Assembly (NCBI GenBank): GCA_965203095.1
Contig: OZ241877.1
Span: 128,001 to 192,000, forward strand
DNA length: 64,000 bases
Direction of reading: 5' to 3'
Origin: Bdellovibrionales bacterium
GTDB lineage: Bacteria; Bdellovibrionota; Bdellovibrionia; Bdellovibrionales; UBA1609
Both the position numbers and the translations under genes were made by a program. Under the pieces are notes generated by a model. That model saw only the letters and a program-made list of their open reading frames with translations, ran no database searches and was not told where the DNA came from. Below are positions 6,852 to 38,348 of the stretch, one piece after another (positions within the stretch are counted from its first letter, which is position 1; each line of letters begins with the position of its first letter).

Positions 6852-8189
6852 TTAGCTGTAAGGCTTTATTTTGATGAAATCCTTGATTTTTTGAGAGATT
6901 CGCCGGCTCTTATTTAAAATCTTTTCTTCATCTAAAGTTTTAAGCTCCCTATCTTCCATTAAAACTTGCCCATCACACATGACAAAACTCACTTCACTTC
7001 CTAAAGCACTATAAATTATGTTGGATACCAAATTATAAAAAGGTTGAAAAGATATATGATCAGAATCCAAAGCGATAAGATCCGCTCGCTTTCCCACTGC
7101 AATATTCCCTATTTCCTCAAAAAGCCCCATGGCCTTAGCTCCCCCAATAGTGGCCATAAATAAGATCTGCTGAGCTGTCGGAGACTGATCCCCATATTTT
7201 AAAGCCTGAAGTTTAGCCCCTGTCCCCATCTCTTCAAAAAAATTCAGATTGTTATTAGAGGCCGAACCATCAGTGCCCAAGCCCACGGTTAAGCCTTTTT
7301 CTAAAGCCTCTCCTATAGGGGCTATGCCATTTCCCAATTTCATATTGCTGGATGGGTTATAGGAAAGTGAGGTTTGGCTTTTAGACATGATTTCTAAATC
7401 CCTTGGGCTGACATGAACACAATGGACAAAAAGAGAAGACTTCCCCGTTAGCCCCAAATGATGTAGATATTGAACAGGGCTTTTCTTATATTTTTTTTGG
7501 ATCTCCTCTTGCTCCCACAAGCTTTCAGAAACATGAATAGTTAAAGGCAGGTTTTCCGATTGGGCAAACTCCCCTATTTCAGTTAAGGTTTTGGTATCTA
7601 CTGTGTAAGGGGAATGAGGGGCCAGGCCCACTTGCACACGAGGATTTTTTTTGAATTGATGGCGGAGGGCTAAAGTCTTTTTTTTCCACTCTCGCCAGTC
7701 CTTTTCTAAACTGGGAATGCCCAAAGCCACAATCCCTCTCACCCCCGACTGATCCAAAGTTTCCGCCAGGGCTTGATTGTAAAAATACATATCATAACAG
7801 GTAGTCACACCAGAGCGAATAAGTTCTATTAGGGAAAGCTCTGTTCCTGTCCGGACAAAATCTTCATTTACAAAACGGCTTTCTAAGGGGAATATATAGT
7901 CCTTAAGCCAAACCATTAAAGGCAAATTATCGGCCAAACCCCGGAACAAAGACATAGGCAAATGGGTATGAGTGTTCACAAAACCCGGACATAAGATCTG
8001 CCGGTCAAAATGATAAACCTGCTTGGCTTTTAAAAGTGGGCTTGGCTTTCCCACATATCGGATTTGCCCCTTACTTATAGCAATGGCTTGATCCGATTCC
8101 AAAACAAACCGACTCCCTTTATAAACTAAAATATATTGGCAAAGTAAAAGGCTATCGTATTCCGCTTGTGAATGAGGTTTTTGGTTCAT
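6852..8189 (-). CDS. Amidohydrolase, MtaD/SAH deaminase-like
   Basis: PGFVNTHTH, APHSPY, IHVSES, VHCVH, GTDGSASNN motifs. Confidence 0.85.
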   Translation of the reverse strand: MNQKPHSQAEYDSLLLCQYILVYKGSRFVLESDQAIAISKGQIRYVGKPSPLLKAKQVYHFDRQILCPGFVNTHTHLPMSLFRGLADNLPLMVWLKDYIFPLESRFVNEDFVRTGTELSLIELIRSGVTTCYDMYFYNQALAETLDQSGVRGIVALGIPSLEKDWREWKKKTLALRHQFKKNPRVQVGLAPHSPYTVDTKTLTEIGEFAQSENLPLTIHVSESLWEQEEIQKKYKKSPVQYLHHLGLTGKSSLFVHCVHVSPRDLEIMSKSQTSLSYNPSSNMKLGNGIAPIGEALEKGLTVGLGTDGSASNNNLNFFEEMGTGAKLQALKYGDQSPTAQQILFMATIGGAKAMGLFEEIGNIAVGKRADLIALDSDHISFQPFYNLVSNIIYSALGSEVSFVMCDGQVLMEDRELKTLDEEKILNKSRRISQKIKDFIKIKPYS

Positions 8190-8313
8190 AGTTTCTCCTT
8201 TATTTTCTTCTTTATATATTGTTCCCTCAACTTATGCAACCAGATATGTTGATGAACATTATAATCATCAAATATTTTTTTCATGATTTACTATTTGCCT
8301 GTGCCATTTATTT

Positions 8314-9123
8314 TTAAGGAGATAATTCCGCTGGAGTTGTCCGTTTTTCTTCCTGAAATCTTTTGATAGATAGGTCTAAAAACGGGAGATGCTTATCAAT
8401 ACCGATAAAGGATCTTTTTAAACGATAAGCTGAAATTCCTGTGCTGGAACTTCCTGTAAAAGGATCCAAAACCAAATCTCCTGGTTTTGTGCTGGCCTGT
8501 AAAATTCGGCTTAAAAGTTTTAGAGGTTTTTGTGTGGGATGTTTGCCAGCTGTTTTTTCAGAAGTAGGAGTAGTGTTAATAGCCCAAACCGATCGCATCT
8601 GTTTTTCTGGCTTTTTGATAAAATCCTTCCCCCAAAAACCAAACTTCATATCTTCATAATTAAAAGTGTATTTGGCTTTTTTATCTGGACAAGCCCATAT
8701 TAAAGTTTCATGGCTGGCCGCAAAGCATCTACAACCAATATTGGGCGGAGCGTTGGGTTTATACCAGGCAATATCATTTAAAATTCTATAACCTGCCTTT
8801 TGCAAAGCAAAGCCACACTGGTAAATGGAGTGATAAGTCCCGCTGATCCAAATCGTTCCTTCTGATTTAAGCACTCGGTGGCAAGCCTTTATCCAACTCA
8901 AATGAAAAGCAAAATCCTCATCCAGCCCAGAACTTTGATCCCAATCCCCTTTATGCACATCCACTCGCCGGCCAGAATGAACAGAAAAACCACCATTAGA
9001 TAAATTATAAGGAGGATCGGCAAAAATCATATCTACAGATTTTTCTGGAAGAGATTTTAATATCTCCAAACAACTGCCCTGATAGAGAGAAAAACCATCT
9101 TCTTGATAATAGGGTTCCATCAT
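8314..9123 (-). CDS. Site-specific DNA adenine methyltransferase, beta class (DpnA-like), orphan
   Basis: FADPPY, HPTQKP, DPFTGS motifs. No adjacent endonuclease. Confidence 0.85.
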   Translation of the reverse strand: MMEPYYQEDGFSLYQGSCLEILKSLPEKSVDMIFADPPYNLSNGGFSVHSGRRVDVHKGDWDQSSGLDEDFAFHLSWIKACHRVLKSEGTIWISGTYHSIYQCGFALQKAGYRILNDIAWYKPNAPPNIGCRCFAASHETLIWACPDKKAKYTFNYEDMKFGFWGKDFIKKPEKQMRSVWAINTTPTSEKTAGKHPTQKPLKLLSRILQASTKPGDLVLDPFTGSSSTGISAYRLKRSFIGIDKHLPFLDLSIKRFQEEKRTTPAELSP

Positions 9124-9422
9124 ATTTTTAATGTTTAAAAATTTTTGTTTTCTTTACCCTGTTTTAACCAAAAGCTTCATAATATGATCATTATACCAGA
9201 CTCTTTTTCTAAAATAAATAAGGCTTTTTACTATTTTTTTATATCACACCTTAAAAAAAGTCTACTTTTCCCCCTCAATGATATAATCATATCGCGAAGT
9301 GTCATTTGTTGTTTGACACATCTCCCTCACAATGAATAAAGAGGGGATTATTTTGTGCTTTGTATAAAATTACCAAAGTCTCATTTTTTTAGAAATCTTC
9401 CCTTTTAAAAAAGTAAGAGAGC

Positions 9423-10547
9423 TTAAAAAACAGAATCTCCTCTTTCAACAGAATCTACTAATTCTCTTAATTTTCTGCAATCTCCTTTTAAATATTCTTT
9501 AAAAAAGTCAATACTTTTAGAAGAATTAATCTCAATTTTATCTGGGCTGATTTTTGTTAAACTGACTATTTCATTCATAGATTTAGATCTTTGAAATTGC
9601 TCAATTTTTTTTATAAAAGTCTTCTTTTCGATTTTATCTGGATCAACAATAAGCATTTTTGTATTTAAATCAGAACTTAAATTTTGTATTAAAATATTGT
9701 TAATATATCTATCTTGAAAACTATAACCTACTGTAATAAATACACTTGCTGTTTTTAAAACTTCATTAAAAGCTCCTAAAAGTGATAAAAAAGGATCATA
9801 AGATTGAATCTTTGAACCAGAACCAAAAATAATTAAAGGTTTTTCTTCAGTTATTTCCTGTTTAATAATTTCTTCTTTTTTATCAAAATGCCAGTCAATA
9901 GAACCATGAAGTTTATAAATTTTTATTTTTTCAGGATTTTGTGGATTGTTAAAATCACCCACCCAAAGCTTTTGAGAAAAACCAGTATATACAAGATGTT
10001 CATTTTCATTATTAAAATTTTTCTCAAACATTATATCATAATTAAGAGAAAATATGTTTATATCAAATTGCTCATCCGATTGAGTTAAATTGTCAAACGG
10101 TTCTAAAATATTTTTAGCTTTCTCTTTATCAAACTGTGTCCACTTATGGACAAGCTGATTATATATAAAATCATAAAAATCTTGAAAAATATTTTTGTTT
10201 TCAGCTTCCCACAAAGTAATTTTATTATTCCAGTTCCCTATTAAAGGAGGGGGAACAATATACTCTCTATCTATTATTTGTTGCAATACTAATACAAAAT
10301 CCTCAATATTTGTCACTTCAGACACTTTCGCTTCTGTATCTTTTAAACCGTATTGATATAGAAGGCTTTGTATTATAAAATTGTATATATCAAGAAAGTA
10401 TTTGCTATTTGGCCAAGAAATTTCAGAATCAGATATAGATTCTTTCAGATCAAAAAGCATTTCTTTTGACAAAAAACATCCGGCACCTTTTGATGCTCCT
10501 GCACCAAAAAGAAACACTACCTTTTCAAATAAGTTTTTTAAACTCAT
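9423..10547 (-). CDS. Stand-alone SIR2-like (putative NADase) effector
   Basis: FLFGAGAS, SLNYD, KLHGSIDW, VGYSFQDRYIN motifs. ATG 10547 overlaps the pAgo stop (ATGA). Confidence 0.88.
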   Translation of the reverse strand: MSLKNLFEKVVFLFGAGASKGAGCFLSKEMLFDLKESISDSEISWPNSKYFLDIYNFIIQSLLYQYGLKDTEAKVSEVTNIEDFVLVLQQIIDREYIVPPPLIGNWNNKITLWEAENKNIFQDFYDFIYNQLVHKWTQFDKEKAKNILEPFDNLTQSDEQFDINIFSLNYDIMFEKNFNNENEHLVYTGFSQKLWVGDFNNPQNPEKIKIYKLHGSIDWHFDKKEEIIKQEITEEKPLIIFGSGSKIQSYDPFLSLLGAFNEVLKTASVFITVGYSFQDRYINNILIQNLSSDLNTKMLIVDPDKIEKKTFIKKIEQFQRSKSMNEIVSLTKISPDKIEINSSKSIDFFKEYLKGDCRKLRELVDSVERGDSVF

Positions 10548-12595
10548 AAAAACCACAATGTTTGTTTTGCAGTCTTTGAATCAGGAAATTTACTGTCACT
10601 AAAATATGGGGTCATTTCAGCTATTTTTTTAGAGTATAAAACTGTTACTGGTTCTGCTTTTTGTTTTACACTAACCCAATACATTCTGGAAAATTGATAA
10701 ATTTGATCTATAAGAAGTTTAATATCTCCTTTTGAGGGCTTTTCCTGACTTGTTTTTGATATTTTTATTTGAATGGGATAAGGGAAATCTCCAATCTTTG
10801 CTCTGGTTATATTTGAGTATCTCTCATTATTACACAGGAGATAGTGCCATTTACTCTTAAGGATAACACAAGTTCCACTGACTGGCATTTTTCCATTATA
10901 AGAAATATCAAACGGGATGTAATCCTTACTTTCTGTAATATGCAAAACAATGTAAGGAATTTTAAGATTTAACTGATTCAGAGTGTTCTCTATTGTTCTG
11001 CTCTCTTTTTTATTCATTTTTTTGTAATAGTGGATAATGATTCTTTTAAAATTATTTATATCTATTTTTGATTTTGATATTTGCAATATAATATCTTTAA
11101 GAAACTTTGAAATATCCTCAATAGAATGAGCTTGTGAAGCATCAAATCGAACAAAAGTTCCATCATTTTTAAATGTCATGGTTGTGCCGATGCAGGTATT
11201 TTGATTCTTTCTAAAGGCTCCTACACCAATAATTAAATCACTTTCTATAGGACGGCTTAACCTCCAAGGGATTCCTCCCAGCTTAGCTAAAACAGCAATC
11301 CCAATATTGGACAAAAAGTAATTAAAGTTTGGTTTGATTATATTATCTCTGTAAATAACTTGAGAAGTGATATTTTCCTTCAATAATAACTCCTTCAATT
11401 TATAATAGATTCCTTTCTTATCGGAATCAAGATCATCTTTTTTGATTCGGGAAATATAAATCCCAACATATTTTATATTTCGATCAAAATCCAATGAAGC
11501 TAATTTCTGTTTGATTTCTGATAAAGGATTCTCTTTTTTAAATTTTATTGTTTTTTCTTTATCAAGATCTATATTTAATTCAACAAATCGAGAAAGCCCG
11601 GGGAAGCCTTTAATTCCTTTTTTAAAGTAAGCATAAAGTTTATTTGCAATATCTTTGTCATCTTCATGAAATATAAAAAAGAAACTATACTGCCTTTGTT
11701 CAACAGGCCGATAGGGGCCATACTCTTTAATTCCATAATAAGGACTAAAGTGAGTTTTGTTCTCACCAAATGTCAACAAATTAGAGTCTCGTTTTGCGTA
11801 TATTATTTGCTCATTGCTAATTGTTTGAAAGCCAGATCTAAAAATGGATATTTTCTCATTTTTATTTATATTAATATTCTTCCCTTTAACATATTTTTCA
11901 TAAAAATCAGAAATCTCATTATAAAACAGAGAATATTTATTTGGTGGTTTATGGAATGGTTTTGACCATCCCTTTTGTGCCAAAAATTCATTACTTACAA
12001 TCGCTTTTGTTTTTTTGGATTCTTTTTCTTCTGGAGTTAATTTATCAAAAGGCTTAACAGTATTTCCCACAAGAGCTTTTTTAATAACACTATGGAAATT
12101 TTTATAAGAACTTAGAGGTTTTTTTGTAGTGTCCTTTTTCCCTAAATAGGAAATGCTGAGATTCCAAAAATTCCCGGCAGAGCAAGCATATTGTTTTTTA
12201 GGGTGGATAATACGGACTTTAAATTTTTTATATGTTATTAAGTCATATCTATTGGATTCATCTTGTTTTTCAAGTAGAACAAGATCACCTATAAAATCCT
12301 TATAAACTATTAATTTTTGTTCTAAAAAATAATTGTAAAAGGATTTTTTTAAAATATATTTAACAACTTTAAAGTTTTCTTTATCAATTTCTATTGGTTC
12401 TGAACCTTTAAATTTTTCTAAAGCCCAATACACTCTCTCATTAAAATCTTTAAATTTATCAGGGTTCAGAAGTTTTTTTGGAATACTGTCATAGTCTTCT
12501 TGATTGTCTTTTGAATAATAAATCATTATCTTTTCAAAAGATAATTCAAAAGGTATCAGGTTAATTGTTAAATTAGAATTCATAGTTTGGCTCAT
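10544..12595 (-). CDS. Long prokaryotic Argonaute, catalytically inactive PIWI
   Basis: GIKEYGPY. MID motif YYKLK..ITSQVI..NIGIAVLAKLGGIPWRL. PIWI segments IIGVGAF, IIHYYK, FSRMYW..EPVTVLYS lack the catalytic Asp residues. Confidence 0.9.
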   Translation of the reverse strand: MSQTMNSNLTINLIPFELSFEKIMIYYSKDNQEDYDSIPKKLLNPDKFKDFNERVYWALEKFKGSEPIEIDKENFKVVKYILKKSFYNYFLEQKLIVYKDFIGDLVLLEKQDESNRYDLITYKKFKVRIIHPKKQYACSAGNFWNLSISYLGKKDTTKKPLSSYKNFHSVIKKALVGNTVKPFDKLTPEEKESKKTKAIVSNEFLAQKGWSKPFHKPPNKYSLFYNEISDFYEKYVKGKNININKNEKISIFRSGFQTISNEQIIYAKRDSNLLTFGENKTHFSPYYGIKEYGPYRPVEQRQYSFFFIFHEDDKDIANKLYAYFKKGIKGFPGLSRFVELNIDLDKEKTIKFKKENPLSEIKQKLASLDFDRNIKYVGIYISRIKKDDLDSDKKGIYYKLKELLLKENITSQVIYRDNIIKPNFNYFLSNIGIAVLAKLGGIPWRLSRPIESDLIIGVGAFRKNQNTCIGTTMTFKNDGTFVRFDASQAHSIEDISKFLKDIILQISKSKIDINNFKRIIIHYYKKMNKKESRTIENTLNQLNLKIPYIVLHITESKDYIPFDISYNGKMPVSGTCVILKSKWHYLLCNNERYSNITRAKIGDFPYPIQIKISKTSQEKPSKGDIKLLIDQIYQFSRMYWVSVKQKAEPVTVLYSKKIAEMTPYFSDSKFPDSKTAKQTLWFL

Positions 12596-12678
12596 TTATT
12601 TTTATTGCCTTTTGTTTTTCATAGTGTCCAACAAGTTATCTATTATAAAATTCAGCATAAGTCTCATAAATTTTATTT

Positions 12679-15330
12679 TTATTGCTTTGTTTTAAAAACT
12701 TTGTTTAGGGAATCTCGCCATTTGTTTTGAAAGATAAGATCAAATGTCATTTTTTTGTCTTGAATTTCAATAGTTCCGGCCCCAAAGGATTTTTGAGAGT
12801 ATTTTGTAAAAAGCTCAAAAAGCTTTCTCTTGTATTCTGTATCAAGGTTTCCCATAAGATGTTGCCCTTTTGTTTCTAAAATGGAAAAAGAGGCATTACC
12901 CTTTTTAGATGACCTGACACAAACTAAAAAATCAGGATAGATTTTATTTTTTTGCCAGCCCTGTAAATACCAATCCTGCTTTTCTATAATCCTATGCCAC
13001 CATTTAATGGCTGAATCCTCGTCCAAATACCAAGCCACTTTTTTTTCCAAATCGTTAAACTTAAACTCCTCTTTGTAAACACTTTCAAACAGAGAAAGTT
13101 GCAAATCCATATTATTTTGCCTTCTCAATACAGGACTTCCTTGGGAAATAAAGAGATTCAAGCTTTCTGCCATTTCCCAATTCAAGTCGGGATCGCCTGC
13201 ACTCACCAGTTTAAATATAATTTCATGATTTTTTAATTTTTCCCTAAAAAGCTTTTCTGTTTTTTGACTGATTTGCTCTTGAATATTATTTCTTAAAAAA
13301 TCCAAAATATAAAATCGGCTCAAATAAACCCGCTCTTTTCCATATTTCCTTTTTAATGAAGAAAGAGCCTTATCCACTATCACACTTGCAGACCAAAGAT
13401 TAGGAACAATGTCAGAAAGCCTTTGACACATAAAACCAAAATCCATATTAAAATCCTCCGGCATATCCTCCTCTTCACTGCCATGGAAAGAAGAGATCAA
13501 TTCCAACTGTTTTTTTATATCCACCTGTGTATGAGATATATCGGGAATTTTCTCATCTAAATTCGGAGTTCGATTTGATTTTAACTTTGAATAATCAATG
13601 TCAAATAGCAAATCTTCCTCATAACTTAACTCCTTTAAGATATTCCCTTTTTTTAAGAGAACTTTTGGCAAAAAGATTTTTAAACCTCTAAAGGGTTTTC
13701 TTCTTCGGATATTCACTTCCCGAACAGGGGGCTTATGATTATCAGGCATTTTTATTTCTCCAGCCAAGCCATCCATTCCTTCGTTTTCTAAGCCTTTTCG
13801 GATTCCCTCCACAGTTTGTTTTGTATCTTGATCCATACAAAGCACATAAGATTGATTTAAAGATTCTATGTTGGTTCTTCTTGTCTCCGGTTGCCTTAAA
13901 ACTCGCCCTATCATTTGCTCAATAGCCAGAGTGGACTTTGTTTTAGATAAAATCGTCAAAATATAAGCAAAGGGGCAATCCCAACCCTCTTTTAAGGCTT
14001 CCTTAGTGATTATGTATTGGACTTTAGAATATTTAGAGAGCAAGTCCTCATTTTTCAACTCGTCCTTTGTGGCAGATTTGACTTTAATTTCCGCAGGATC
14101 CACATTAAAGTTTTTTATCAAATACTCTCGGACATCTTCGGAATGAATAAATTTCTTTTCCCTTTGATCAGCTCCCGTTCTCTCCACCCTGACAAGTAGG
14201 ATAGGACGAATATAGCGACTGTCCTTGGCCTGCAACTTGATGGCATTTTTTGAAAGTTTTTGCAAAATTTCATGACCTTTAGCTAAAGCCTTTTTCCAAT
14301 CCTTATTTTTTAAGTTATAAATGTTAATGGGGAGTTTTATCATTTCCTCTTTTTTTAATTCCCCACCAGATACAGAAACCAAAACATTGCTCTCATGAGA
14401 TTTTTTGTTGGGTGTGGCCGAAAGCTCTAAAATAAACCGAGGATTAAAATCCATTAAGGCTTTTTTTGCCTTTTCTGTATAAGCCCTGTGGCCTTCATCA
14501 ATTACAATTAAAGGTTGAACCAGTTTTAAAACATTGCCCAAACTGTGCTTTAAGGGGATTTTCTTTAAATTTCTGGAAAGGATGGAGGCTTTAAAGCTGT
14601 GAGTGTCAAGGTTAGGACAGATTTCAATCAGTTTTTGACTGCTCTGGTAGTCATCAATTTCCGGAAAAAAATATGGGAATTTTCCGGAATCTTTGAATAT
14701 TCTTAAAGTTTCTTTTGACTGCCTTCCGGCGGATTGAAGCATTAACAACAAGACACATAAATAATTTTCCACATCGGAAGGGTGAAAACTATCGGTTTTT
14801 TGCAGAATTTTAACTTTTCTACCTGAGGCCCGATCCAAAGTCTGCCTGTAAAGGCTTTCTCTGTCAGAAAGAGCTTTTAAAGTTTGTTTGTAAATGGTAT
14901 CACTGGGAACTACCCACAGAACAAGGCCATTGTTTCTTTCAAAAAAATCTGTGTTGATCCTCTCTATACTGCCAGCTCCAAGAATGGTTTTTCCTCCTCC
15001 TGTAGGAACTTTAAGACATATATTAGGGACGGGGCGACAAAGGCCACTCAGTCGATCTTTGTAGAGAGGTGCTGTCTCCCCTATTTTTGTTAAAAAAGAG
15101 GGAAGTCGTTTTTGCCTATTCAGCTCATCCCAGGCTCTCTTGCAAAAATTAAAATCCTCTGAATCCCACTGGACAGGAAGATTATCTTTGTTTCTGATTT
15201 CAGCTAAAGCCAAGGCATTGTGTCGCTTTTCCTTCAAAATATTAAGATAGAACGAAAGCCTTTCAAGAACAGCCTGCTGATAATCTTTTAATTCCACTTT
15301 AAAGTCCTCTGTTTTTTCTAAATTGGTCAC
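12679..15330 (-). CDS. Type III restriction enzyme Res subunit (SF2 helicase + PD-(D/E)XK)
   Basis: VPTGGGKT, IDEGH, LSATP, EGWDCP, QMIGRVLR, YPDF..ETKG motifs. Confidence 0.88.
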   Translation of the reverse strand: MTNLEKTEDFKVELKDYQQAVLERLSFYLNILKEKRHNALALAEIRNKDNLPVQWDSEDFNFCKRAWDELNRQKRLPSFLTKIGETAPLYKDRLSGLCRPVPNICLKVPTGGGKTILGAGSIERINTDFFERNNGLVLWVVPSDTIYKQTLKALSDRESLYRQTLDRASGRKVKILQKTDSFHPSDVENYLCVLLLMLQSAGRQSKETLRIFKDSGKFPYFFPEIDDYQSSQKLIEICPNLDTHSFKASILSRNLKKIPLKHSLGNVLKLVQPLIVIDEGHRAYTEKAKKALMDFNPRFILELSATPNKKSHESNVLVSVSGGELKKEEMIKLPINIYNLKNKDWKKALAKGHEILQKLSKNAIKLQAKDSRYIRPILLVRVERTGADQREKKFIHSEDVREYLIKNFNVDPAEIKVKSATKDELKNEDLLSKYSKVQYIITKEALKEGWDCPFAYILTILSKTKSTLAIEQMIGRVLRQPETRRTNIESLNQSYVLCMDQDTKQTVEGIRKGLENEGMDGLAGEIKMPDNHKPPVREVNIRRRKPFRGLKIFLPKVLLKKGNILKELSYEEDLLFDIDYSKLKSNRTPNLDEKIPDISHTQVDIKKQLELISSFHGSEEEDMPEDFNMDFGFMCQRLSDIVPNLWSASVIVDKALSSLKRKYGKERVYLSRFYILDFLRNNIQEQISQKTEKLFREKLKNHEIIFKLVSAGDPDLNWEMAESLNLFISQGSPVLRRQNNMDLQLSLFESVYKEEFKFNDLEKKVAWYLDEDSAIKWWHRIIEKQDWYLQGWQKNKIYPDFLVCVRSSKKGNASFSILETKGQHLMGNLDTEYKRKLFELFTKYSQKSFGAGTIEIQDKKMTFDLIFQNKWRDSLNKVFKTKQ

Positions 15331-15393
15331 CCATGAACATTATACCATAAACAAAAATTCGGTGGTAAGAGTTCAAGGTATTCTCGTCCTGAA

Positions 15394-15575
15394 CAAGATT
15401 TTCTGGATTCCCGCTATCAAAGGAATGACTGTTCTGCAAGATTTTCTGGATTCCCGCTATCAAAGGAATGACTGTTCTGCAAGATTTTCTGGATTCCCGC
15501 TTTCGCGGGAATGACTGTTCTGCAAGATTTTCTGGATTCCCGTTTTCGCGGAAATGACTATTCTGCAAGTTTTTC
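15394..15575. repeat. Tandem 43-bp REP-like palindrome array (4 units plus partial)
   Basis: caagattttctggattcccgctatcaaaggaatgactgttctg starting at 15394, 15437, 15480, 15523; partial at 15566. Confidence 0.92.
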
Positions 15576-15649
15576 TTGATTTCCATTCGCATGGGAATCA
15601 AAAAGTCTAAGGGCTTTTTGGTAAAATAGAAAAAAACACTACCCATTAC

Positions 15650-17308
15650 TTAAATTCCTATAATTTTATAAATGGCAGTGGGAAGTTGGCAAAATTGAAT
15701 ACCGTATTTTTTCTTAAGATTTTTTTGAGTGATATAGCTTGCCGTAGCATAAACCAAGTTGATTTTTTTGGAATTTTTATTGAATTTTTGAACCGCTTCC
15801 GCAAGATCCAAATGCAAGGCACTTTTTTTGCTCATTAAAAAATCCAAATCAGGTTTATATACAAGATGAAAACTGTAATTTTCCGTTTCACCGATAAACC
15901 AAGATGGGCTAATTTTAGGGACAACATTCAAACTTTTTCCTGTTGCCGTGTAAAAAATATATTCCGCCAGTTGTTTGTAGTCGGGAAGTTTGCCCCTTAG
16001 CATATTCTCCGCATTGATTTCATCCCCCAAAGAACAATAAGTAAGGGAACCACCTAAGCCTTTTTTTAGTTTTTTATCCTTGGCTTTTGGGATGCCCTTA
16101 ATCACACGGCGAACCCGCTCCGTCGTGATTTTATCCGCATAATCCTCACACTCAACCAGAATAAATTTGCGATGGCCTCCGTCCTCTTTATTTAAGTCTA
16201 AAACTGCATGAGCTGTCGTGCCAGAACCGGCAAAAGAATCTAAAATAATAGAGTCTTTATCACTTACAATTTTAAACAAACGGATCAGCAAATTAACAGG
16301 CTTGCTATTATTAAAAATTTTTTTACCGAATATTCCTTTTTGCTCATTTGTAGCATCAGTTGTAGTTGCTAAATCATAAAAAATAGTCCGCTCTTTTATT
16401 GTTTTTGTCTGTCCGTTCAATTCATCAAGGTATTCTACTTCATAAGGGGTCCAGAGGTTTTTTCTTTTTTCCCAATGAATATGCTCTTTATCTAAATTCA
16501 CCGGACGGGTCCGCCAGTTGCCGTCCCTTCCATCAGGTGCTTTAGGATAAAAATCTTTGCCATCAGGATCTTTAATGGAATAAAACATTGTTGGACGATC
16601 CTCACGGTAAGCATTAGATCCCCATTTTTCCAACTTTGTAAAACGGCACTTTCTCCCACTTTTAACTTTGTTAAAATATTTTGAGTTGATCTCAATAGTT
16701 CGAAAAATCATGCGAAAACTGTTACTTTTTCGATAGCATAATATATAATCATGCTCTCTGGCAAAATACTCACTGTCTTGACCACCACCTGCTTTTTTTC
16801 GCCAGACTATCTCATTAACAAAATTTTCTTCCCCAAAAATTTCATCCATTATCATTCTCAATCTATGTTGTTCATTGTCATCAATAGAAATAAAAATCAC
16901 TCCATCTTCAGATAGCAATTCCTTTAATAACTGGAGCCTTGGCCACATCATGCAGAGCCATTTGTCATGTCTTTCCTGATCATCTGTTCCAATGCCGTTT
17001 TGTTTTAGCCATTCCTTTATTATGGGACTGTTGACCCTGTCGTTGTATTTCCAGCCTTCGTTTCCGGTGTTATAGGGTGGATCAATATAAATACATTTGA
17101 CTTTCCCGGAGTATCTGGGCAAAAGGGCTTTTAAGGCATGAAGATTGTCTCCATGGATGACTAAATTATCATTTAGACTTAGTGCTGATTTTCCCGTTTT
17201 TTTGTCTGACGAAAGAGATTTTTTTACATCCACTTTAAGTGTTCGGAAAGGAACTCCAAGATGATGAGAATAGATGATGGATTTTCCCTTAAAATCTAAA
17301 AAAGGCAT
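15650..17308 (-). CDS. Type III R-M Mod DNA methyltransferase
   Basis: HGDNLHALK, YIDPPYNTG, FISIDDNE, LDSFAGSGTT motifs. Confidence 0.9.
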   Translation of the reverse strand: MPFLDFKGKSIIYSHHLGVPFRTLKVDVKKSLSSDKKTGKSALSLNDNLVIHGDNLHALKALLPRYSGKVKCIYIDPPYNTGNEGWKYNDRVNSPIIKEWLKQNGIGTDDQERHDKWLCMMWPRLQLLKELLSEDGVIFISIDDNEQHRLRMIMDEIFGEENFVNEIVWRKKAGGGQDSEYFAREHDYILCYRKSNSFRMIFRTIEINSKYFNKVKSGRKCRFTKLEKWGSNAYREDRPTMFYSIKDPDGKDFYPKAPDGRDGNWRTRPVNLDKEHIHWEKRKNLWTPYEVEYLDELNGQTKTIKERTIFYDLATTTDATNEQKGIFGKKIFNNSKPVNLLIRLFKIVSDKDSIILDSFAGSGTTAHAVLDLNKEDGGHRKFILVECEDYADKITTERVRRVIKGIPKAKDKKLKKGLGGSLTYCSLGDEINAENMLRGKLPDYKQLAEYIFYTATGKSLNVVPKISPSWFIGETENYSFHLVYKPDLDFLMSKKSALHLDLAEAVQKFNKNSKKINLVYATASYITQKNLKKKYGIQFCQLPTAIYKIIGI

Positions 17309-17600
17309 ACTTTTCCTTAATAATTATATCCCGTCCCAAACCAGATGGGATTGTGTTTATGCGATCGGTTAAAGACCAGCTTCACGGGCAATTAAATAAT
17401 AACATAATGAAAAGGTAAAGGCAAACATCTATCCTGGTTTTGTCTAAAGTTGTTCTTAAGTTCTTAAGAAATAATGCAATATGTTAATCGCCTTCTTGCA
17501 TCTAATAGGAAATCATAAGTTAAGGCTATAGACTTGGCCTTTGTTGGTCCGCCGACCGTCAAAAGAAAAAAAAGCACTTTTGTCGCCTCATAATGTTAAG

Positions 17601-17674
17601 TGGAGGTGATGGCCGGATTTGAACCGACGTGAGCGGATTTGCAGTCCGCCGCCTAACCCCTCGGCCACATCACC
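17601..17674 (-). tRNA. tRNA-Cys(GCA)
   Basis: Reverse complement GGTGATGTGGCCGAGGGGTTAGGCGGCGGACTGCAAATCCGC...GGTTCAAATCCGGCCATCACCTCCA folds as a cloverleaf with GCA anticodon and encoded CCA. Confidence 0.95.
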
Positions 17675-17765: not shown

Positions 17766-17952
17766 TGGATTCCCGCTTTCGCGGGAGCTAAAAAGCCTAC
17801 GGGCTTTTTTAACAGGCTGAGGCTTTTTCATGGGCGACTATGGTAGTGGATTCCCGCTCAATGCGGGAGCTAAAAAGCTTGGGGGGCTTTTTGGCAAACT
17901 AAGCCGTTTTTAAATAAGTTTTTTTGGATTCCCGCTCAAGGAGGCGGGAAAG
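17766..17952. repeat. Cluster of REP-like GGATTCCCGC..GCGGGA hairpins
   Basis: Three tggattcccgct copies. gggagctaaaaagcttgggg(g/a)gctttttggcaaact is shared with about 63592. The last copy overlaps the aroA 3' end. Confidence 0.75.
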
Positions 17953-19176: not shown

Positions 19177-20145
19177 TCAAAGAGAGCTGATAAACTTCCT
19201 CCAATCAGAATTTCTCCAGTTGAGATTTCCCGTATTGAAAATATAGGCGGAATCATGGGAAAATTTGTTTATACCTCTAAACTTGATATCCCCTTCAATC
19301 TCTTCTCTCTTTTTTATATCTTTTAAAAAAGAACGGCTATATTTCCCTTGCCATGAGTGGATTGTGTAATGTTTGATTCCTTTTTTCCCTTTATATTTAT
19401 ATTGCTCTGATTGAAAATCCTTTGTTAAGACAAAACCAGCAATATAAGCAGGAATTTTCTCTAAGTTAGGGATAGCATTAAAAAAAGCTCCAGCCTCTTC
19501 TTTTTTAAAATAACCTTTTTCAACCGCTCTTTTTAGCAATTTGTCTTTAAAAACACTTATCTTTTTAAAAAAAGAAAAAATATGACTTTTTTCCAGAATC
19601 AACTGGACCAGAATATGACAATCTGAATGGTGAAATTGAGTTCCCGGAATATCTAACCACATTCCATTTAGGCTTGTCGTTTTTATTCCAATAGTTTTTT
19701 TAGGCTTTCTAAATTTTAAATCTTCCCTCTTTTTAATTTCATAAATATCAGTATGAATAAATTTTTTTAACTCTCCTGCCCTGTGTTCAAGCTTTGATTC
19801 TATATTAAATTTTTCCCATAAAAATTTCTGAAATGCTTTTTCGCCAAGGTAGCCTCTTGTAGTGTCCGCCCATTTTTGATTAAAATCCCTTTGTCTTGAG
19901 CTTCCAAAATCTGTCTCAGCAAAATTCTTTAATGATTTTAATGCATTTAAGCATACCTCCTCATAGTCTGATACTGTTAAAAAAACAGTATTGTTTTTAA
20001 TTCGTTTTTCAATCCATTCCGCACTTTCTTTCTCATTGGCAAATTCTCCTGAAATATAAGATTTTTTATAGAACTTCTCACTATTGAGCTGATTTAAACC
20101 AAGAAGATCAGAAATTTTCTTAACATGATTTTTATTTGGTATCAT
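19177..20145 (-). CDS. Putative Type II restriction endonuclease
   Basis: AT-rich ORF directly downstream of a C5 MTase. GEKAF..TDI..IGIKT PD-(D/E)XK-like pattern. Start re-assigned to ATG 20145. Confidence 0.65.
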   Translation of the reverse strand: MIPNKNHVKKISDLLGLNQLNSEKFYKKSYISGEFANEKESAEWIEKRIKNNTVFLTVSDYEEVCLNALKSLKNFAETDFGSSRQRDFNQKWADTTRGYLGEKAFQKFLWEKFNIESKLEHRAGELKKFIHTDIYEIKKREDLKFRKPKKTIGIKTTSLNGMWLDIPGTQFHHSDCHILVQLILEKSHIFSFFKKISVFKDKLLKRAVEKGYFKKEEAGAFFNAIPNLEKIPAYIAGFVLTKDFQSEQYKYKGKKGIKHYTIHSWQGKYSRSFLKDIKKREEIEGDIKFRGINKFSHDSAYIFNTGNLNWRNSDWRKFISSL

Positions 20146-20146
20146 T

Positions 20147-21274
20147 TTATAAACCCATTTCCATTTGAGTGGAGTCCGCAAAATCTTCCGCAAATGTTCT
20201 TTCTGTAGAGATATAAGGGTAAGGAATTTTAAATAAAGTTTTTATCATAGACTCAAAAAGAAGACAGGACATTTTTGGCGGGACAGCCATCCCAATCTGC
20301 CTTCTAACACTTCCAATATTCCCCTCAAAAACAAAATCATCAGGGAAGGTTTGAAGTCTGGCCCTTTCTCTGTTAGTCAAGGGGCGATCTTCCTTCCAAT
20401 GATAACCATAAGTCCCACCGCCTCCGCTCCCTGTGATCGTATAAGAGGGTTTATTTTCATCTAATCGTCTATATATATGGCTTAATCGAGTAGCAGAGTG
20501 AATCTTCAAATCCTCTGGCATGTCTGAGTTCCATATATTCTGCCATGGTTTTATATATCTCAGCCGCTCAACAACTTTACCAGAAACCTTTATAAAATCA
20601 TGGTTTCTTTCCGTAGGGCTTATTGGAGGTTGTTCCAAAGCAGTCTTTGCACTGACACAATTCCCAATATGGCTTGGCTGGGGAATGTTGAAAACCAAGT
20701 TCAAATCCCGCCTCACACCGGCAATAATAATCCTATGTCTCATTTGAGGGATACCGTATTCCTCAAACCGATATTTGTGAAATGTCAAATGATAGCCTTT
20801 TCCAGCACTTTGAAGATCATTTAGTATTTTGAGAAAAGCTTTTCCTTTATTTGCACTAAGAATACCTCCCACATTTTCTGCAAGAAAAGCTTTGGGGTTC
20901 CACTGCTTTAAAACCTCTATCCCGTATTTGTATAAAGGGCCGAATTTCCCTTTGACGCCTTTATGCTCTCCAACAATGCTGAAATCATTGCAGGGAAAGC
21001 CATAAGAAAAAATGTCAATAGGGCTTAAAGATCCTATATTTAGAGTTCTGACATCCTGATGGAGCACGAGGGCCAAAGAGGATACATTTTTTTTGTAAGT
21101 CAAGCAACTGTCTCTATCGGAGTCACAAGCCCATTCATGCTTGATTTTATAAATGTTCTTTTTGTCCTCCACAAGGGCTTTTTTAGCCCCTAAGCTCATG
21201 CCCCCTGGACCGCAAAACAGCTCCCCATATTTTAACTGAATTGTCTTTTTCATAGCTGGTTTCTTTATACCCAC
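20147..21274 (-). CDS. DNA (cytosine-5) methyltransferase
   Basis: ELFCGPGG, GFPCNDFS, AENV, QMRHR, RERARLQTFPD, QIGMAVPP motifs. Confidence 0.93.
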   Translation of the reverse strand: MGIKKPAMKKTIQLKYGELFCGPGGMSLGAKKALVEDKKNIYKIKHEWACDSDRDSCLTYKKNVSSLALVLHQDVRTLNIGSLSPIDIFSYGFPCNDFSIVGEHKGVKGKFGPLYKYGIEVLKQWNPKAFLAENVGGILSANKGKAFLKILNDLQSAGKGYHLTFHKYRFEEYGIPQMRHRIIIAGVRRDLNLVFNIPQPSHIGNCVSAKTALEQPPISPTERNHDFIKVSGKVVERLRYIKPWQNIWNSDMPEDLKIHSATRLSHIYRRLDENKPSYTITGSGGGGTYGYHWKEDRPLTNRERARLQTFPDDFVFEGNIGSVRRQIGMAVPPKMSCLLFESMIKTLFKIPYPYISTERTFAEDFADSTQMEMGL

Positions 21275-29226: not shown

Positions 29227-30012
29227 TTAGCCTTTTGTTAAGAAATAAAGCCTGACAAAATCCTCAGGTGCAATTTGTTCTGCACGAATGGACTCCGGAA
29301 GATCCAGTTTTTTGAGAGTTTCCTTAGCCTTCTCTTTAAACCCGGGGAACAGTTGTTTAAAAAACATTTTTCTTCTAAAGGCAAAACACTGCTTGAGGAA
29401 TGGCAAAAACATATCCACTGGCAGGGGCTTTTTTCTTTTTTTAATTTGAAACTCTAAAACTGTTCCATCCACTTGAGGACGAGGATAAAAATTGGTTTGA
29501 GAAACATTCATTACCCGCCGGACATTCCAAAAAACTTGAGACATGACAGAAAGCAGGCCATAGCTTTTACTATAGGGGAGAGATAACAAATTGTCGGCCA
29601 ACTCCTTTTGTGTCATGAAAAGCATAGTGAAAATCCGCTCTTTCTGCCGGCAAGCTTTAATGAGCAATGGGCCTGTGATTTCATAAGGCAAATTACCAAA
29701 AATGGTAAATTTTTGAGGTAGCTGGGCCCAGTTAAATTTTAAAATATCTGCACAAAAAACAGTCCAACCCGCCTCTTTCCAATAACGAGCCAATTTTTTG
29801 TCCCTCTCCACAAGGCTCACCTGCTCTTTTTTAAAATGTCGGGTAAGAGCACCGGCCCCAGGCCCTATCTCTACAAAAGGGAGAGGATGAGTCTGAACTC
29901 TATCCACAATTTTTTGAATGATTCTGGGATTGATTAAAAAATTTTGCCCCATTTTTTTAACAGGGAAAAGCTTCTCCTGCTGTAAAAAAAAATGTGTCTG
30001 TTTTTTATTCAC
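29227..30012 (-). CDS. rsmA: 16S rRNA m6,2A dimethyltransferase
   Basis: GQNFL, EIGPGAGALT, GNLPYEIT, FYPRPQVD, RAEQ motifs. Confidence 0.92.
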   Translation of the reverse strand: MNKKQTHFFLQQEKLFPVKKMGQNFLINPRIIQKIVDRVQTHPLPFVEIGPGAGALTRHFKKEQVSLVERDKKLARYWKEAGWTVFCADILKFNWAQLPQKFTIFGNLPYEITGPLLIKACRQKERIFTMLFMTQKELADNLLSLPYSKSYGLLSVMSQVFWNVRRVMNVSQTNFYPRPQVDGTVLEFQIKKRKKPLPVDMFLPFLKQCFAFRRKMFFKQLFPGFKEKAKETLKKLDLPESIRAEQIAPEDFVRLYFLTKG

Positions 30013-30021
30013 TCCATTATT

Positions 30022-33000
30022 TTATTTCCCAAAGCCTTTTTCAGAAGAATGGCTATTATTTTCCGAAGACAGGCCCTCAAAGAGGCGAGAAGGAGTAGGT
30101 TCTTCATCCCTATCAAAAGCCAAGGGGTATCTATGGTAAGAGGAAAACACCGTTCCTGCGGGAATGAGCCGGCCCATAATTACATTTTCCTTTAAACCCT
30201 CTAATTTATCCATACGAGATTGAACTGCCGCCTCAGTCAAAATGCGAGTGGTCTCTTGAAATGAGGCAGAGGAAAGCCAACTTTTTGTATTCAAAGCGGT
30301 TTTAGTGATCCCTAACAAAATAGGCTTATAACTTATTGTTCGCCCCCCCTCTTGAATGATCTTTTCATTAGCTGTTTTTAAATCCGAAATATCTACCTGC
30401 TCCCCCGCAATGTAATGGCTGTCCCCGGGATCTGTGACTTCAGCTTTTTTTAACATTTGACGAACAATCAACTCAATATGCTTGTCATTGATGGCCACCC
30501 CCTGAAGACGATAAACCTCTTGCACCTCATCCACAAGGTAAGAGGATAGAGCCTTCGGTCCGGACACATTTAAAATATCATGCGGATCCGTAGTTCCATC
30601 CATAAGAGAATCTCCTTTTTTAATAAACTCCCCTTCCCGAACGGAGACAAATTTTCCCTTAGGGAGTAAATACTCCTTTTGCTCCCCCTCTAAAGAGGTG
30701 ACAAGCAGTTTTTGCTTTCCCTTAACATCTTTTCCAAAACTCACATGACCGTCAATCTCTGCAATAATAGAAGGCTCTTTGGGCCGGCGAGCTTCAAACA
30801 ACTCAGCCACACGGGGAAGTCCTCCGGTAATGTCTTTTGTTTTTGTGCTCTCCTTATAAACTTTGGAAATGATATCTCCGGCGTGAATTTTCTCCCCATT
30901 AGAAACCATCAGCTGAGAACCTACCGACATAGCATAAGCCACAGGTAGATCTCTTCCGGGAAAAAGTGCCGGCTGGCCCTTTTCGTCTAAAATGGCCACA
31001 GCACATTTTTGATCCCCTGAGGGAAGTTCTGTAATGACCTTAGTTGTAAATCCCGTCACAGGATCCACCTGATCTATCACATTGGACCCTTCCTCCATAC
31101 CTTGGAATTGAACCACTCCAGACACATCCGCCACAACAATATTAGTGTAAGGATCCCATTCCGCTATCAACTGGCCCTTTTCCACTTTATCTCCCTCATT
31201 AAAATTTAAAACCGCACCGTAGACTAAGGAGAACTTCTCCCTCTCCCGCCCTGTATCATCTAAAAGGACGGCAGAACCGCCACGGTTCATCACTGTCCAT
31301 TTTTTGTCCCGATTTTGAACCCGATGGACATTGTCAAATTTTAAAGTCCCCGGATAGCGGGCCTGATGAACTGACTGCTCTACTGATCGGGATGCCGTTC
31401 CCCCCAAGTGAAAAGTTCTCATAGTGAGCTGAGTGCCCGGTTCACCAATGGACTGAGCGGCAATAATGCCCACAGCTTCGCCAATGTTGACAGTGCGACC
31501 TAAGGCCAAATCTCTTCCATAACATTTCACACAAACACCATTTTTTGTCTGACAGGTGAGGCTGGATCGGATTTTGACTTTATTTATCCCCGCTTGACTG
31601 ATTTTACTAACAGCCTCCTCATCCAGTTCTTGCCCCTGGCAGGCGATGATTTCTGAAGAAAGGGGATCGGTAATTTCCTCCGCAGTGGTCCGGCCCAATA
31701 TTCTTTCAGAAAGAGGCTCTATCACCCCGCCACTCTCCATAAGGGCAGAGATTTCAATAAAATCCTGACTTCCGCAATCCTCTTCTGTGACAATCAAATT
31801 TTGAGAGACATCCACCAGCTTTCTGGTCAGGTATCCGGAGTTGGCTGTCTTTAAGGCAGTGTCTGCCAGCCCTTTCCGGGCACCGTGTGTAGATATAAAA
31901 TATTGAGACACTGTCAAACCCTCACGAAAATTGGCTGTGATAGGTGTTTCAATAATCTCGCCAGAGGGCTTAGCCATTAAACCCCTCATCCCAGAGAGCT
32001 GACGGATCTGTGCTGTGGAACTTCTGGCCCCCGAGTCCGCCATAATAAAAATGGGATTAAAACTGGCCGCTGATATTTTTTTGTCGTTCACCTCAAAAGT
32101 TTCTTTCTCTAAATAGTCCATCATTTCACTGGCCACTTTGTCGCCACAGTGAGTCCAGGTATCAATCACCTTATTGTATCTCTCCCCCTCAGTGATTAAA
32201 CCCTCATCATATTGGTTGCGGATCTCATCGACTTGGGCACGGGCGGATTTTAGCAGTTCCTCTTTTCGGGAGGGGATCTGCAAGTCGTTAATACCGATAG
32301 AAATCCCCGCTTCTGTAGAATATTTAAAACCCGCATTCATCAGTTTATCGGCTAAAATCACAGTTTTTTTACCTCCACATAAACGAAAAGTCTTATTGAT
32401 CAGATCGGCTAAGGAGCTTTTGTTCATCACCCGGTTGTAATATTTAAAAGGGACTTCCTTAGGGACAATCGCACTGAGCAAAACCCGCCCTACGGAACTT
32501 TCCTCTAATTTTCCAGCCACACGGCATTTGATGCCAGCTTGCAAATCTACTCTCCCTGTCTCAAAGGCGTAAATCAGCTCAGACACATTGGCAAAAACCT
32601 TATCAGAACCTTTGGCCCCAGGCCGTATTCGGGTCATCCAATACACTCCAAGGACGACATCCTGAGTAGGGGCAATTATGGGCTGACCACTGGCAGGGCT
32701 TAAAATATTATTTGTAGACATCATTAAAACACGAGCCTCTGTTTGAGCCTCTACAGAAAGGGGCAAGTGCACGGCCATTTGATCGCCGTCAAAATCCGCA
32801 TTAAAGGCTGTGCAAACTAAAGGGTGAAGTTGGATGGCTCTTCCCTCATGCAACACCGGCTCAAAAGCCTGAATACCCAAACGATGCAAAGTGGGAGCAC
32901 GGTTAAGTAAAACAGGGTGCTCTTTTACCACTTCAGATAAAATGCTCCAAACTTCGTCTGTTTTTTCCTCCACTAAAGCTCTCGCCTGTTTGACTGTCAG

Positions 33001-34173
33001 GGCCAAGCCTCTTCTTTCCAACTTATGGTATATAAAAGGCTTAAAAAGCTCTAAAGCCATAGTCTTAGGCAAACCGCATTCATGAAGACGCAAGTGAGGC
33101 CCCACAACAATTACCGATCGCCCGGAGTAATCTACCCTTTTCCCTAAAAGATTGGATCGAAAACGTCCTTGCTTCCCTTTTAAAACATCACTTAAAGAGC
33201 GAAGGGGTCTTTTATTGGGGCCAGTAAAAACCTTGCCCCCCCGACCGTTGTCTAAAAGGGCGTCCACAGCCTCTTGCAACATACGTTTTTCATTCCGAAT
33301 GATAATTTCCGGAGCATTCAATTCTTTAAGTTTTCTTAAACGGTTGTTCCGGTTGATCACACGGCGGTAAAGATCGTTGAGATCAGAAGTGGCAAAACGA
33401 CCCCCATCTAAAGGCACTAAAGGTCTTAAGTCCGGAGGGATTACAGGAAGAACCTCCAGAATCATCCATTCGGGTTTGTTGATGGATTTTTGGAGATCCT
33501 CCATCACTTTAATTCGCTTTCTCATTTTTTTAATTAAAGCTTCAGAAGAGCTTTCTTCTATATTTTTCCTCAATTTTTTTGTCATCCAATCCACATCAAC
33601 AGATTTAATCAGATTTCTAATAGCCGATCCTCCCATATCCACTGTGAAATGAGGGCCATACTCCTCTCTCGCCTTTTCATAATCATCTTCTGAAAGAAGT
33701 TGTCCTTTTTTTAAGCCTGTATCCATAGGGTCCATAACTAAATAATATTCGCAGTAAAGCACTTTTTGGACATCTTTGACGGACATGCCTAAAAAACTCC
33801 CTATTCGGCTGGAGGCCGTGCCAAGGAACCATATATGAGCCACTGGACTTGTCAGCTCAATATGCCCCATCCTCTCCCTTCGCACTTTAGAGCGAGTGAT
33901 CTCGGTCCCGCATTTTTCGCAAATCACAGCCCGATATTTCATCCCTTTGTATTTCCCGCAAAGGCATTCATAATCTTTGTTGGGTCCAAAAATTTTACAG
34001 CAAAAAAGACCTTCCCTTTCGGGCTTAAAAGTCCGGTAGTTGATAGTCTCTGGCTTTTTTACCTCCCCATAACTCCATTTTCGAATAAGCTCTGGAGAGG
34101 CTATAGATATTCTAATGGATTCTAAAGCTAAAGGATCTTTGGGCTTGTCAAAAAAATTTAAAAGATCTCTCAT
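30022..34173 (-). CDS. rpoC: RNA polymerase beta' subunit
   Basis: [34 protein letters not shown] motifs. Confidence 0.99.
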
Positions 34174-37100: not shown

Positions 37101-38348
37101 ACTGTAAGTCGAATCATTAAAAAACAAGTTTTCAAAATAATGTTTCGCGGCCTCTAAAACCAAAGGCTCACCGGGTTTCATCCGCCGGTAAATATCTAAA
37201 AGAGCCTCCTCTTGACTATGGACCGAATCCATCAAAAGAGTTTTAGACAAATAGGGGCCTGAGGCCAAACTTTCAAAAAAGATTATATCTATCTTTTTAA
37301 TTCCCAAAGAGATGGCTTGATTTACAGTTTCCATAGTGGGAGCTTGGTTGGACTCATAGAGAACTTCACCCGTTTGGGGATGAACAAGGGGCCGGGCCAA
37401 AACCCCACTTTCCAAATCCTCCTCTTCCAACTCCATTTCTTTTATGCCAGCTCCTTTAACTTTTCTCAAAACCGATCGAGTCAATCGCCTTCCCGCTCGG
37501 GCCAAAATATTCCCCTTTTTATCTTTAATGTCCCTTTGTGGGCTTTGCCCCTCCATCTGCTCAATGTCAAAAGTTCTGACAAGCTTTCCCTTTTTCAAAA
37601 ACAATTGATCGATATGGTGAAAGCTTTCCAATATGTCATCTTGGTTTAAACCCAAGGCTTTTAAGAAGATAGTCACCGGAAACTTCCTTTTCCGGTCAAT
37701 ACGGGCATTGACAATATCTTTTTGATCAAATTCAAAATCCAACCAAGAACCTCTATAAGGGATAAAACGGGCAGAATAAATGTATTTCCCACTGGTGCTA
37801 CTTTTCCCCCCATCGTGATCAAAAAAGACCCCCGGTGATCGGTGGATTTGAGAAACCACCACTCGCTCTGTCCCGTTAAAAATAAAGGAGGCATGATTGG
37901 TCATCAATGGAATGTCACTCAAATACACCTCCTGCTCTTTAACATCGCGGATGGCTCGCTTTTTTCCCTCTTCTTTGGGTTCAAAAATGATAAGCCGAAA
38001 GGTGACCCTCAAAGGAGAAGCATAAGTCATCCCTCTTTTTTGCAGGCATTCCCGAACATCATACTTAGGATGAGACAAACTATAATGCACAAACTCCAAA
38101 CTGACCGTGTTGTTGTAATCCGAAACGGGAAAAACAGACTTAAAAATGGCTTGCAGACCAATGTTTTTTCGCTTTTCCGGAGGAACATCCTTTTGCAAAA
38201 ACTTTTTATAAGAGTGGCTTTGCAGATGAATCAGATTGGGAACATCTACAAATTTTCTCGTAGAGCCAAAGCTCTTTCGAAAACGCAGATGAGATCCAGT
38301 GAGAAAGCGTTTTTTCATTCCTTTAGAACCAGGATTAGCTTTTTTCAA
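34173..38348 (-). CDS. rpoB: RNA polymerase beta subunit (start may be 38318)
   Basis: [39 protein letters not shown] motifs. Confidence 0.99.

Follow-up and report, generated by a model that had tools for sequence, protein, structure and literature searches.

Within a 64,000-nucleotide stretch of a Bdellovibrionales bacterium (GenBank assembly GCA_965203095.1, contig OZ241877.1, positions 128,001 to 192,000 of the forward strand; hereafter the window), two overlapping minus-strand genes encode a long prokaryotic Argonaute (pAgo) and a SIR2 protein. We conclude that they very probably form an intact BPAS-type pair, in which a slicer-dead long-B pAgo would act as the sensor and SIR2 as the effector of a guide-directed depletion of NAD+. 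The pair is of an already known kind, described as BPAS by Song et al. (Nat Commun 2023; PMC10620215) for GbBPAS, which consists of GbAgo (HAG96803) and GbbAgaS (HAG96802), and its pAgo is modelled end to end in a defence-gene library of 2023; the cassette is a horizontally acquired, ordinary BPAS member. An initial annotation of the window had proposed a guide-directed NAD+-depletion defence, and homology, gene order and conserved residues now argue for that proposal.

Fold, clade and functional sites of the Argonaute

Pfam recognizes a Piwi domain in the pAgo (1e-13), and the PADLOC pAgo model PDLC02385 aligns pAgo residues 7-683 with positions 2-674 of its 674 (E 1.8e-160). With 30 homologues as input, AlphaFold2 gave a model that is folded along its whole length (pLDDT 84.2, pTM 0.78), and its best Foldseek match is RsAgo (E 1e-27, TM 0.64-0.68), which gives it a full-length Argonaute fold. 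Residues 6-683 of the model superpose on RsAgo 19-777 with a Z score of 28.9 (586 residues aligned, root-mean-square deviation (rmsd) 4.4; VIA), and residues 262-683 on the MID-PIWI protein AfAgo with Z 33.5 (381 residues aligned, rmsd 3.4, 23% identity; VIA). Judged by the long-B criteria of Ryazansky et al. 2018 (PMC6299218), the model has the long architecture, with N, L1, PAZ or PAZ*, and L2 ahead of MID-PIWI, and the protein has a PIWI* domain lacking the DEDX tetrad. Placement among the long-B proteins was made by proxy, with a profile of 30 homologues run against PDB sequences instead of a reference tree. The profile matched long-B AfAgo at 7.5e-34, EcAgo at 2.7e-26 and RsAgo at 6e-21, and matched long-A CbAgo at 8.9e-11, long-A AaAgo at 4.5e-9 and the short SPARSA pAgo at 2.2e-8; by MID-PIWI sequence, as this proxy measures it, the window pAgo would fall in long-B.

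To read the catalytic positions, the window pAgo and 29 homologues were aligned by MAFFT with TtAgo (NC_005838, plasmid pTT27). TtAgo D478 corresponds to G459 in the window, in a column that is Gly in 30/30; E512, at the finger position, corresponds to E493 in a variable column; D546 corresponds to Y524 (Tyr in 27 and Phe in 3 of the 30); and D660 corresponds to K656, where the 30 proteins carry Glu (21), Lys (4), Gln (3), Val (1) or Asp (1). The tetrad residues of EcAgo are given as G492, E532, Q568 and D700 (PMC13535254), and a phmmer alignment to that protein concurs, yielding G459, E493, a gap between Y523 and Y524, and K656. A tetrad of G459/E493/Y524/K656 is not an intact DEDX. As both catalytic Asp are missing, the pAgo is unable to slice, and an active slicer is ruled out. 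The two alignments agree with the initial annotation, which had read Gly in IIGVGAF, Tyr in IIHYYK and Lys in LYSKK at the catalytic positions, and add the Glu at the finger, which it had not mentioned.

The MID 5'-phosphate pocket, of the canonical YK type, is intact. In a phmmer alignment, Y397, K401, Q412 and K438 correspond to RsAgo Y463, K467, Q478 and K506 (RsAgo pocket numbering from PMC6299218); K438 also aligns to EcAgo K469, and N430 to the Asn of the RsAgo YKQTNK motif. None of Y397, K401, Q412, N430 and K438 varies in the 30 homologues, and the Y-K-Q-N-K pocket first noted in this 683-aa protein thus stands. The chain ends in W681-F682-L683, which is invariant in the family; through its carboxylate, the C-terminal Leu of EcAgo is described as helping to keep in place the Mg2+ to which the 5' phosphate of the guide binds (PMC13535254).

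The SIR2 effector and its linkage to the Argonaute

Pfam detects a single domain in the SIR2 protein, SIR2_2 (2.2e-12). Residues 8-355 are spanned by the two PADLOC Aga_SIR2 models (313 and 343 positions long), which match it at 6e-67 and 2.5e-59. The protein, at 374 aa, has neither room for nor any sign of an APAZ domain. SPARSA identity is ruled out, as the initial annotation had it, by a SIR2 without APAZ and by a long pAgo, in which about 260 folded residues precede the region matched by AfAgo, a protein with MID-PIWI only. In 31 SIR2 homologues, N169 and D171 (SLNYD) and H214 (KLHGS) are invariant and the N-terminal G15-A16-G17-x-S19 motif is nearly so; the protein keeps the Asn and His of the NAD pocket, and NADase activity is predicted. 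Among solved structures, its AlphaFold2 model (pLDDT 86.2, pTM 0.87) most resembles SIR2 subunits from SIR2-HerA defence complexes (16-21% identity, E about 1e-11 to 1e-10), followed by weaker matches to the SPARSA SIR2-APAZ protein (1.8e-7) and then ThsA (6.6e-6). Pfam and PADLOC scans of the window revealed no HerA or ThsB partner adjoining SIR2. A complex prediction for pAgo 58-683 (residues 1-57 trimmed) and full SIR2 returned scores of 0.24, 0.60 and 0.01, the mark being 0.32, which favour neither binding nor its absence.

The association of the two genes extends well beyond the window. At E <= 1e-5 there are 281 homologues of the pAgo and 315 of SIR2; almost every one of the 120 pAgo homologues listed has a length of 660-700 aa. 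Loci were surveyed with one genome per species, for the best 80 of 551 relatives. Ten of the 80 carry a SIR2 homologue, in each case downstream of the pAgo and on its strand, and PADLOC called Aga_SIR2 for the same 10 among 73 downstream open reading frames (ORFs) scanned. In a pAgo tree built from the window and 77 loci (78 rows; L032, L054 and L080 were dropped as truncated), the window and all 10 SIR2-linked loci lie within one 12-row clade with an SH-aLRT of 100. The one remaining row, L053, is on a contig that stops about 60 nt past the pAgo, and SIR2 lies directly downstream in 11 of the 11 assessable members, the window counted. In the fetched flanks of the 66 rows outside the clade, SIR2 was found in none. 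The linkage label changes 2 times on the tree, compared with a mean of 10.6 in shuffles, and 0 of 500 shuffles were as low. This gene-neighbourhood survey, which the initial annotation had suggested, places every SIR2-linked locus in the clade of the window. The same annotation's idea of a distinct pAgo clade fails: the pAgo is nested in the SIR2-linked clade, is matched end to end by a PADLOC model and belongs to a published BPAS type. The end-to-end match and the nesting together rule out a distinct new clade.

The coupling of the genes was read directly. On the minus strand, pAgo ends in ...TGG TTT TTA TGA and SIR2 begins with ATG AGT TTA in the +1 register, so that the pAgo stop and the SIR2 start share the ATGA reported in the initial annotation. 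The identical overlap occurs in 10/10 SIR2-linked relatives (11/11 with the window), and translational coupling of pAgo and SIR2 is conserved across the clade.

Other arrangements were seen among the surveyed loci. In L008, from an Anaerolineales metagenome-assembled genome (MAG), the BPAS SIR2 gene (7995-10451) is split by an IS3-type element with HTH_Tnp_1 and rve ORFs. What remains are an N-terminal fragment of 162 aa and a C-terminal one of 219 aa, and the toxic effector is thereby naturally knocked out. In a Bacteroidota pAgo clade without SIR2, 15 loci (L026, L031, L033, L038, L040, L041, L047-L050, L052, L054, L058, L074 and L077) carry an ORF of 138-141 aa that starts in the same register at the pAgo stop. 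Pfam assigned the four of these ORFs that were tested to Fur-family regulators, with matches above the cut-off (E 4.5e-7 to 1.2e-11), and the ORFs have no PADLOC match; an Argonaute coupled in translation to a Fur-like metal-sensing regulator lies outside the BPAN, BPAS and BPAM layouts named in PMC10620215. Also on the SIR2-less side, two pAgos are followed by DUF6660 proteins (L009 7758-8129; L010 7896-8228), which are small and Cys-rich and have a hydrophobic segment at the N terminus.

The low-GC island and its neighbours

Table 1. Coordinates in the window of the pAgo-SIR2 pair and of the features around it.
Feature	Position	Strand	Remarks
Catalytically inactive Argonaute, long-B by profile proxy, proposed sensor	10544..12595	-	683 aa; possibly 679 aa from M5
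Stand-alone SIR2_2 effector, bAgaS type, predicted NADase	9423..10547	-	374 aa from ATG
ATGA stop/start overlap, translational coupling	10544..10547	-	read directly in the sequence
Type III restriction Res subunit	12679..15330	-	883 aa; PADLOC REase_III 7.5e-242; Pfam ResIII; syntenic in L001
Type III Mod methyltransferase	15650..17308	-	552 aa; Pfam N6_N4_Mtase 2e-39
tRNA-Cys bordering the island	17601..17674	-	ARAGORN
N6/N4 methyltransferase downstream of the pair	8314-9123		Pfam, PADLOC

The positions of the pair and of the features around it are collected in Table 1. The pAgo length of 683 aa is counted from the first ATG, and the public gene call for an identical protein (P0003) starts at M5, four codons later, to give 679 aa; no obvious Shine-Dalgarno sequence precedes either candidate, so that translation may start at either. 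The pair lies in DNA (9001-13000) with a guanine-plus-cytosine (GC) content of 0.265-0.293, compared with 0.422-0.474 over the rpoBC region (30001-38000), in keeping with the initial remark that both genes are the AT-richer; the upstream restriction genes have a GC of 0.35-0.37. The genome is Bdellovibrionales-like, in that the five RpoB matches with an organism name among the 120 listed are all Bdellovibrionales, Bdellovibrio or Bdellovibrionaceae, and in it the cassette is accessory and low in GC. The pAgo is absent from all of 40 related genomes of 80-100% completeness, made up of 9 from the same genus, 15 further ones from the family and 16 from the order. The SIR2-linked clade has hosts in Bdellovibrionota, Pseudomonadota, Bacteroidota, Chloroflexota, Ignavibacteriota and Planctomycetota, and the GC of the operon is under that of both flanks in 8/8 relatives measured; this range of phyla, together with the low operon GC, indicates horizontal spread. 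Among plasmid records, 11 give matches but none is a close copy, the best reaching 22-28% identity over <=60% of the protein. The two flanking genes, for an amidohydrolase and an EPSP synthase, have homologues in four of five related genomes, where they lie hundreds of kb apart, so that the insertion site is not definable by an empty-site test. A direct repeat of the tRNA end as an island border was not found.

From about 17343 to 9429, the order Mod, Res, pAgo, SIR2 is collinear with L001, from a Bdellovibrionales MAG, and the flanks are unmatched; synteny ends near 17343, close to tRNA-Cys. Window and L001 are 78% identical in pAgo, 79% in SIR2, 74% in Res and 60% in Mod, and an RpoB core segment apparently from the L001 genome (P0336) is 73% identical to that of the window. 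With pAgo and SIR2 identity exceeding that of RpoB, the four genes, roughly 8 kb, might move as one unit between distant Bdellovibrionales lineages; they would then form a functionally integrated two-layer system in which type III restriction cooperates with the Argonaute-SIR2 suicide module, a reading that we consider very improbable. Were it true, the type III Mod and Res genes that lie directly upstream of SIR2-less-clade pAgos in L070 (1711-5924) and L077 (940-5879), 33-50% identical to those of the window, would reflect cooperation and not mere clustering in islands. Mod-like methyltransferases stand upstream of pAgo in L015, L018, L019, L020 and L046 as well.

A related proposal is that the pair and the upstream type III restriction-modification genes make up a four-gene composite defence, with restriction products or stalled Res complexes perhaps feeding or triggering the Argonaute. 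It could draw on the single-strand collinearity of the four genes, with a gap of 83 nt between Res and pAgo, on the presence of the whole block in L001 between different flanks and on the arrangements in L070 and L077. We nevertheless regard it as very improbable, because a full Res homologue lies upstream in only 3 of the 80 loci and GbBPAS is sufficient as two genes in E. coli (PMC10620215). In addition, other BPAS loci have an opposite-strand type I restriction-modification system (L003), methyltransferases (L013), a KilA-N protein (L005), an integrase (L011) or housekeeping genes (L004, L006, L008) upstream. Because these neighbours differ among loci, the two-gene pair is the conserved unit, and Res is part of a block common with a second Bdellovibrionales genome, outside the BPAS pair.

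The island and its surroundings contain further elements. Between Mod and Res (15351-15608), a 43-nt unit with the palindrome-like core GGATTCCCGC...GGGAAT is present in 4.4 tandem copies at 15394-15581, and the gap between the two genes in L001 is only about 46 nt. The core 10-mer of this unit occurs 14 times in the window at <=1 mismatch, compared with 2.64 expected, mostly in intergenic DNA (for example, at 17767, 17848 and 17926), and the unit resembles a REP-type host repeat that has colonized the island. A 115-aa ORF laid over the repeat (15299-15646) has no Pfam match and is probably not a gene. A possible further type II restriction-modification pair (19177-21274) lies just past the EPSP synthase gene and tRNA-Cys; in it, a C-5 cytosine DNA methylase (Pfam 7e-63; 20147-21274) adjoins a 338-aa ORF without a Pfam match (19177-20193). 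At 1554-2369, a 271-aa ORF gives a weak match, just above the Pfam cut-off (5.8e-5), to Hjc, an archaeal Holliday-junction resolvase-like nuclease.

Proposed mode of action and comparison with known systems

By analogy with GbBPAS and EcBPAN, the latter a pair of EcAgo and the nuclease EcbAgaN (PDB 23wq), the window pAgo would load short 5'-phosphorylated guide RNAs and hold the otherwise toxic SIR2 inactive in a complex. SIR2 would then be released or activated once the guide pairs with single-stranded DNA (ssDNA) of the invader. The freed or activated SIR2 would hydrolyse NAD+, and the infected cell would stop growing or die, with loss of the invader from the population. The 4-nt overlap, which makes translation of SIR2 follow that of pAgo, fits the need for an inhibitor-sensor to be present before or together with the toxin. 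As described in PMC10620215, GbbAgaS alone kills E. coli, GbAgo suppresses this toxicity and co-purifies with GbbAgaS, and a plasmid with a CloDF13 origin triggers NAD+ depletion and death, both of which are abolished by N155A; the same source gives 5'-phosphorylated RNA guides against ssDNA for all characterized inactive pAgos.

The coupling might be BPAS-like and the SIR2 output something other than bulk NAD+ depletion, such as ADP-ribosylation of a target or a signalling nucleotide. Room for such an output is left by the distance of this SIR2 from solved SIR2 enzymes, seen in its low identity to the SIR2-HerA subunits, and these SIR2 proteins were once classed among putative nucleases by bioinformatics (PMC6299218). 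The invariance of N169 and H214 argues for NAD+ depletion instead, as does the N155-dependent drop in cellular NAD+ reported for GbbAgaS, a member of the same family with collinear motifs (PMC10620215), and we judge a different output to be highly unlikely. That pAgo and SIR2 are independent island neighbours, the former silencing plasmids alone in the manner of RsAgo, a long-B protein reported to lower plasmid transcription (PMC6299218), and the latter derived from another system, has next to no likelihood: the island does contain several further defence genes, but the ATGA overlap is present in every one of the 11 copies, SIR2 linkage follows the pAgo clade far more closely than in any shuffle, and neither HerA nor ThsB lies beside SIR2.

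The preferred reading, a BPAS-type pair acting through NAD+, has several points to its disadvantage. PIWI-clade and long-A chains superpose on the pAgo model at Z 29-33, similar to the Z of RsAgo, and with scores tied across clades, long-A and long-B cannot be assigned from the fold alone. Promoter-like sites are not enriched (27, compared with 21.2 +/- 5.1 in shuffles). No terminator signal stands out either, the one terminator-like site being located within the SIR2 gene. Guide type, trigger, NADase activity and complex formation are all extrapolated from GbBPAS, and BPAS activity has been shown against plasmid only, with no anti-phage demonstration as of PMC13535254.

For the field, the locus changes little; it adds a clean, intact BPAS example and a Bdellovibrionales-like host. 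The clade supplies many diverse orthologue pairs (from the 281 pAgo and 315 SIR2 homologues) for structural work on BPAS activation, and a literature search of titles and abstract starts found no BPAS structure paper. Descriptive points on how the cassette is built and spreads are the ATGA coupling in every copy examined, the consistently low GC and the repeated landing of the cassette behind restriction-modification genes.

RsAgo and AfAgo, both long-B pAgos with solved structures, give the best sequence and fold matches. Unlike the window pAgo, which is full length, AfAgo is split, and the window pAgo has a dedicated SIR2 partner of a kind that the sources consulted do not describe for either protein. 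SPARSA shares with the window a SIR2 NADase as the class of output enzyme and the logic of abortive infection; however, it pairs a short pAgo with SIR2-APAZ, in contrast to a full-length pAgo with its own N-L1-PAZ-L2 half and a SIR2 without APAZ. EcBPAN is similar in having a long-B pAgo with Gly at the first tetrad position, and EcAgo and the window pAgo have in common the Y-K-Q-K pocket and the C-terminal Leu. However, EcAgo retains D700 where the window pAgo has K656, and the EcBPAN effector is a PD-(D/E)XK nuclease in place of SIR2. EcbAgaN is recruited only upon target binding, in an 8:8 assembly, via an N-terminal domain that is missing from SIR2 effectors, and the EcBPAN authors suggest that other long-B systems may activate differently (PMC13535254).

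GbBPAS resembles the window pair in its order, pAgo followed by SIR2, in its long inactive pAgo and in its SIR2_2 effector of about 355-375 aa without APAZ. Compared by eye (Supplementary Data 1), GbbAgaS and the window SIR2 have collinear GAGAS, (T/S)LNYD with the essential Asn, YKLHGSIDW and GYSF.D.YIN motifs, and N169 in SLNYD is the counterpart of N155 in TLNYD. Differences also exist: GbAgo has 640 aa compared with 683 aa for the window pAgo, the sequences of the two pairs are clearly diverged by eye, and the GbBPAS host is a gammaproteobacterial MAG, whereas that of the window is Bdellovibrionales-like. Two short N-terminal GbBPAS motifs have no copy among the 80 surveyed loci, and GbBPAS itself is outside those 80. 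Taken with the equivalents of GbbAgaS N155 and of the catalytic His in N169 and H214, the layout of the window pair, a putative long-B pAgo with an adjacent APAZ-less SIR2_2 protein (og_44 / bAgaS) in a simple operon, is that of BPAS.

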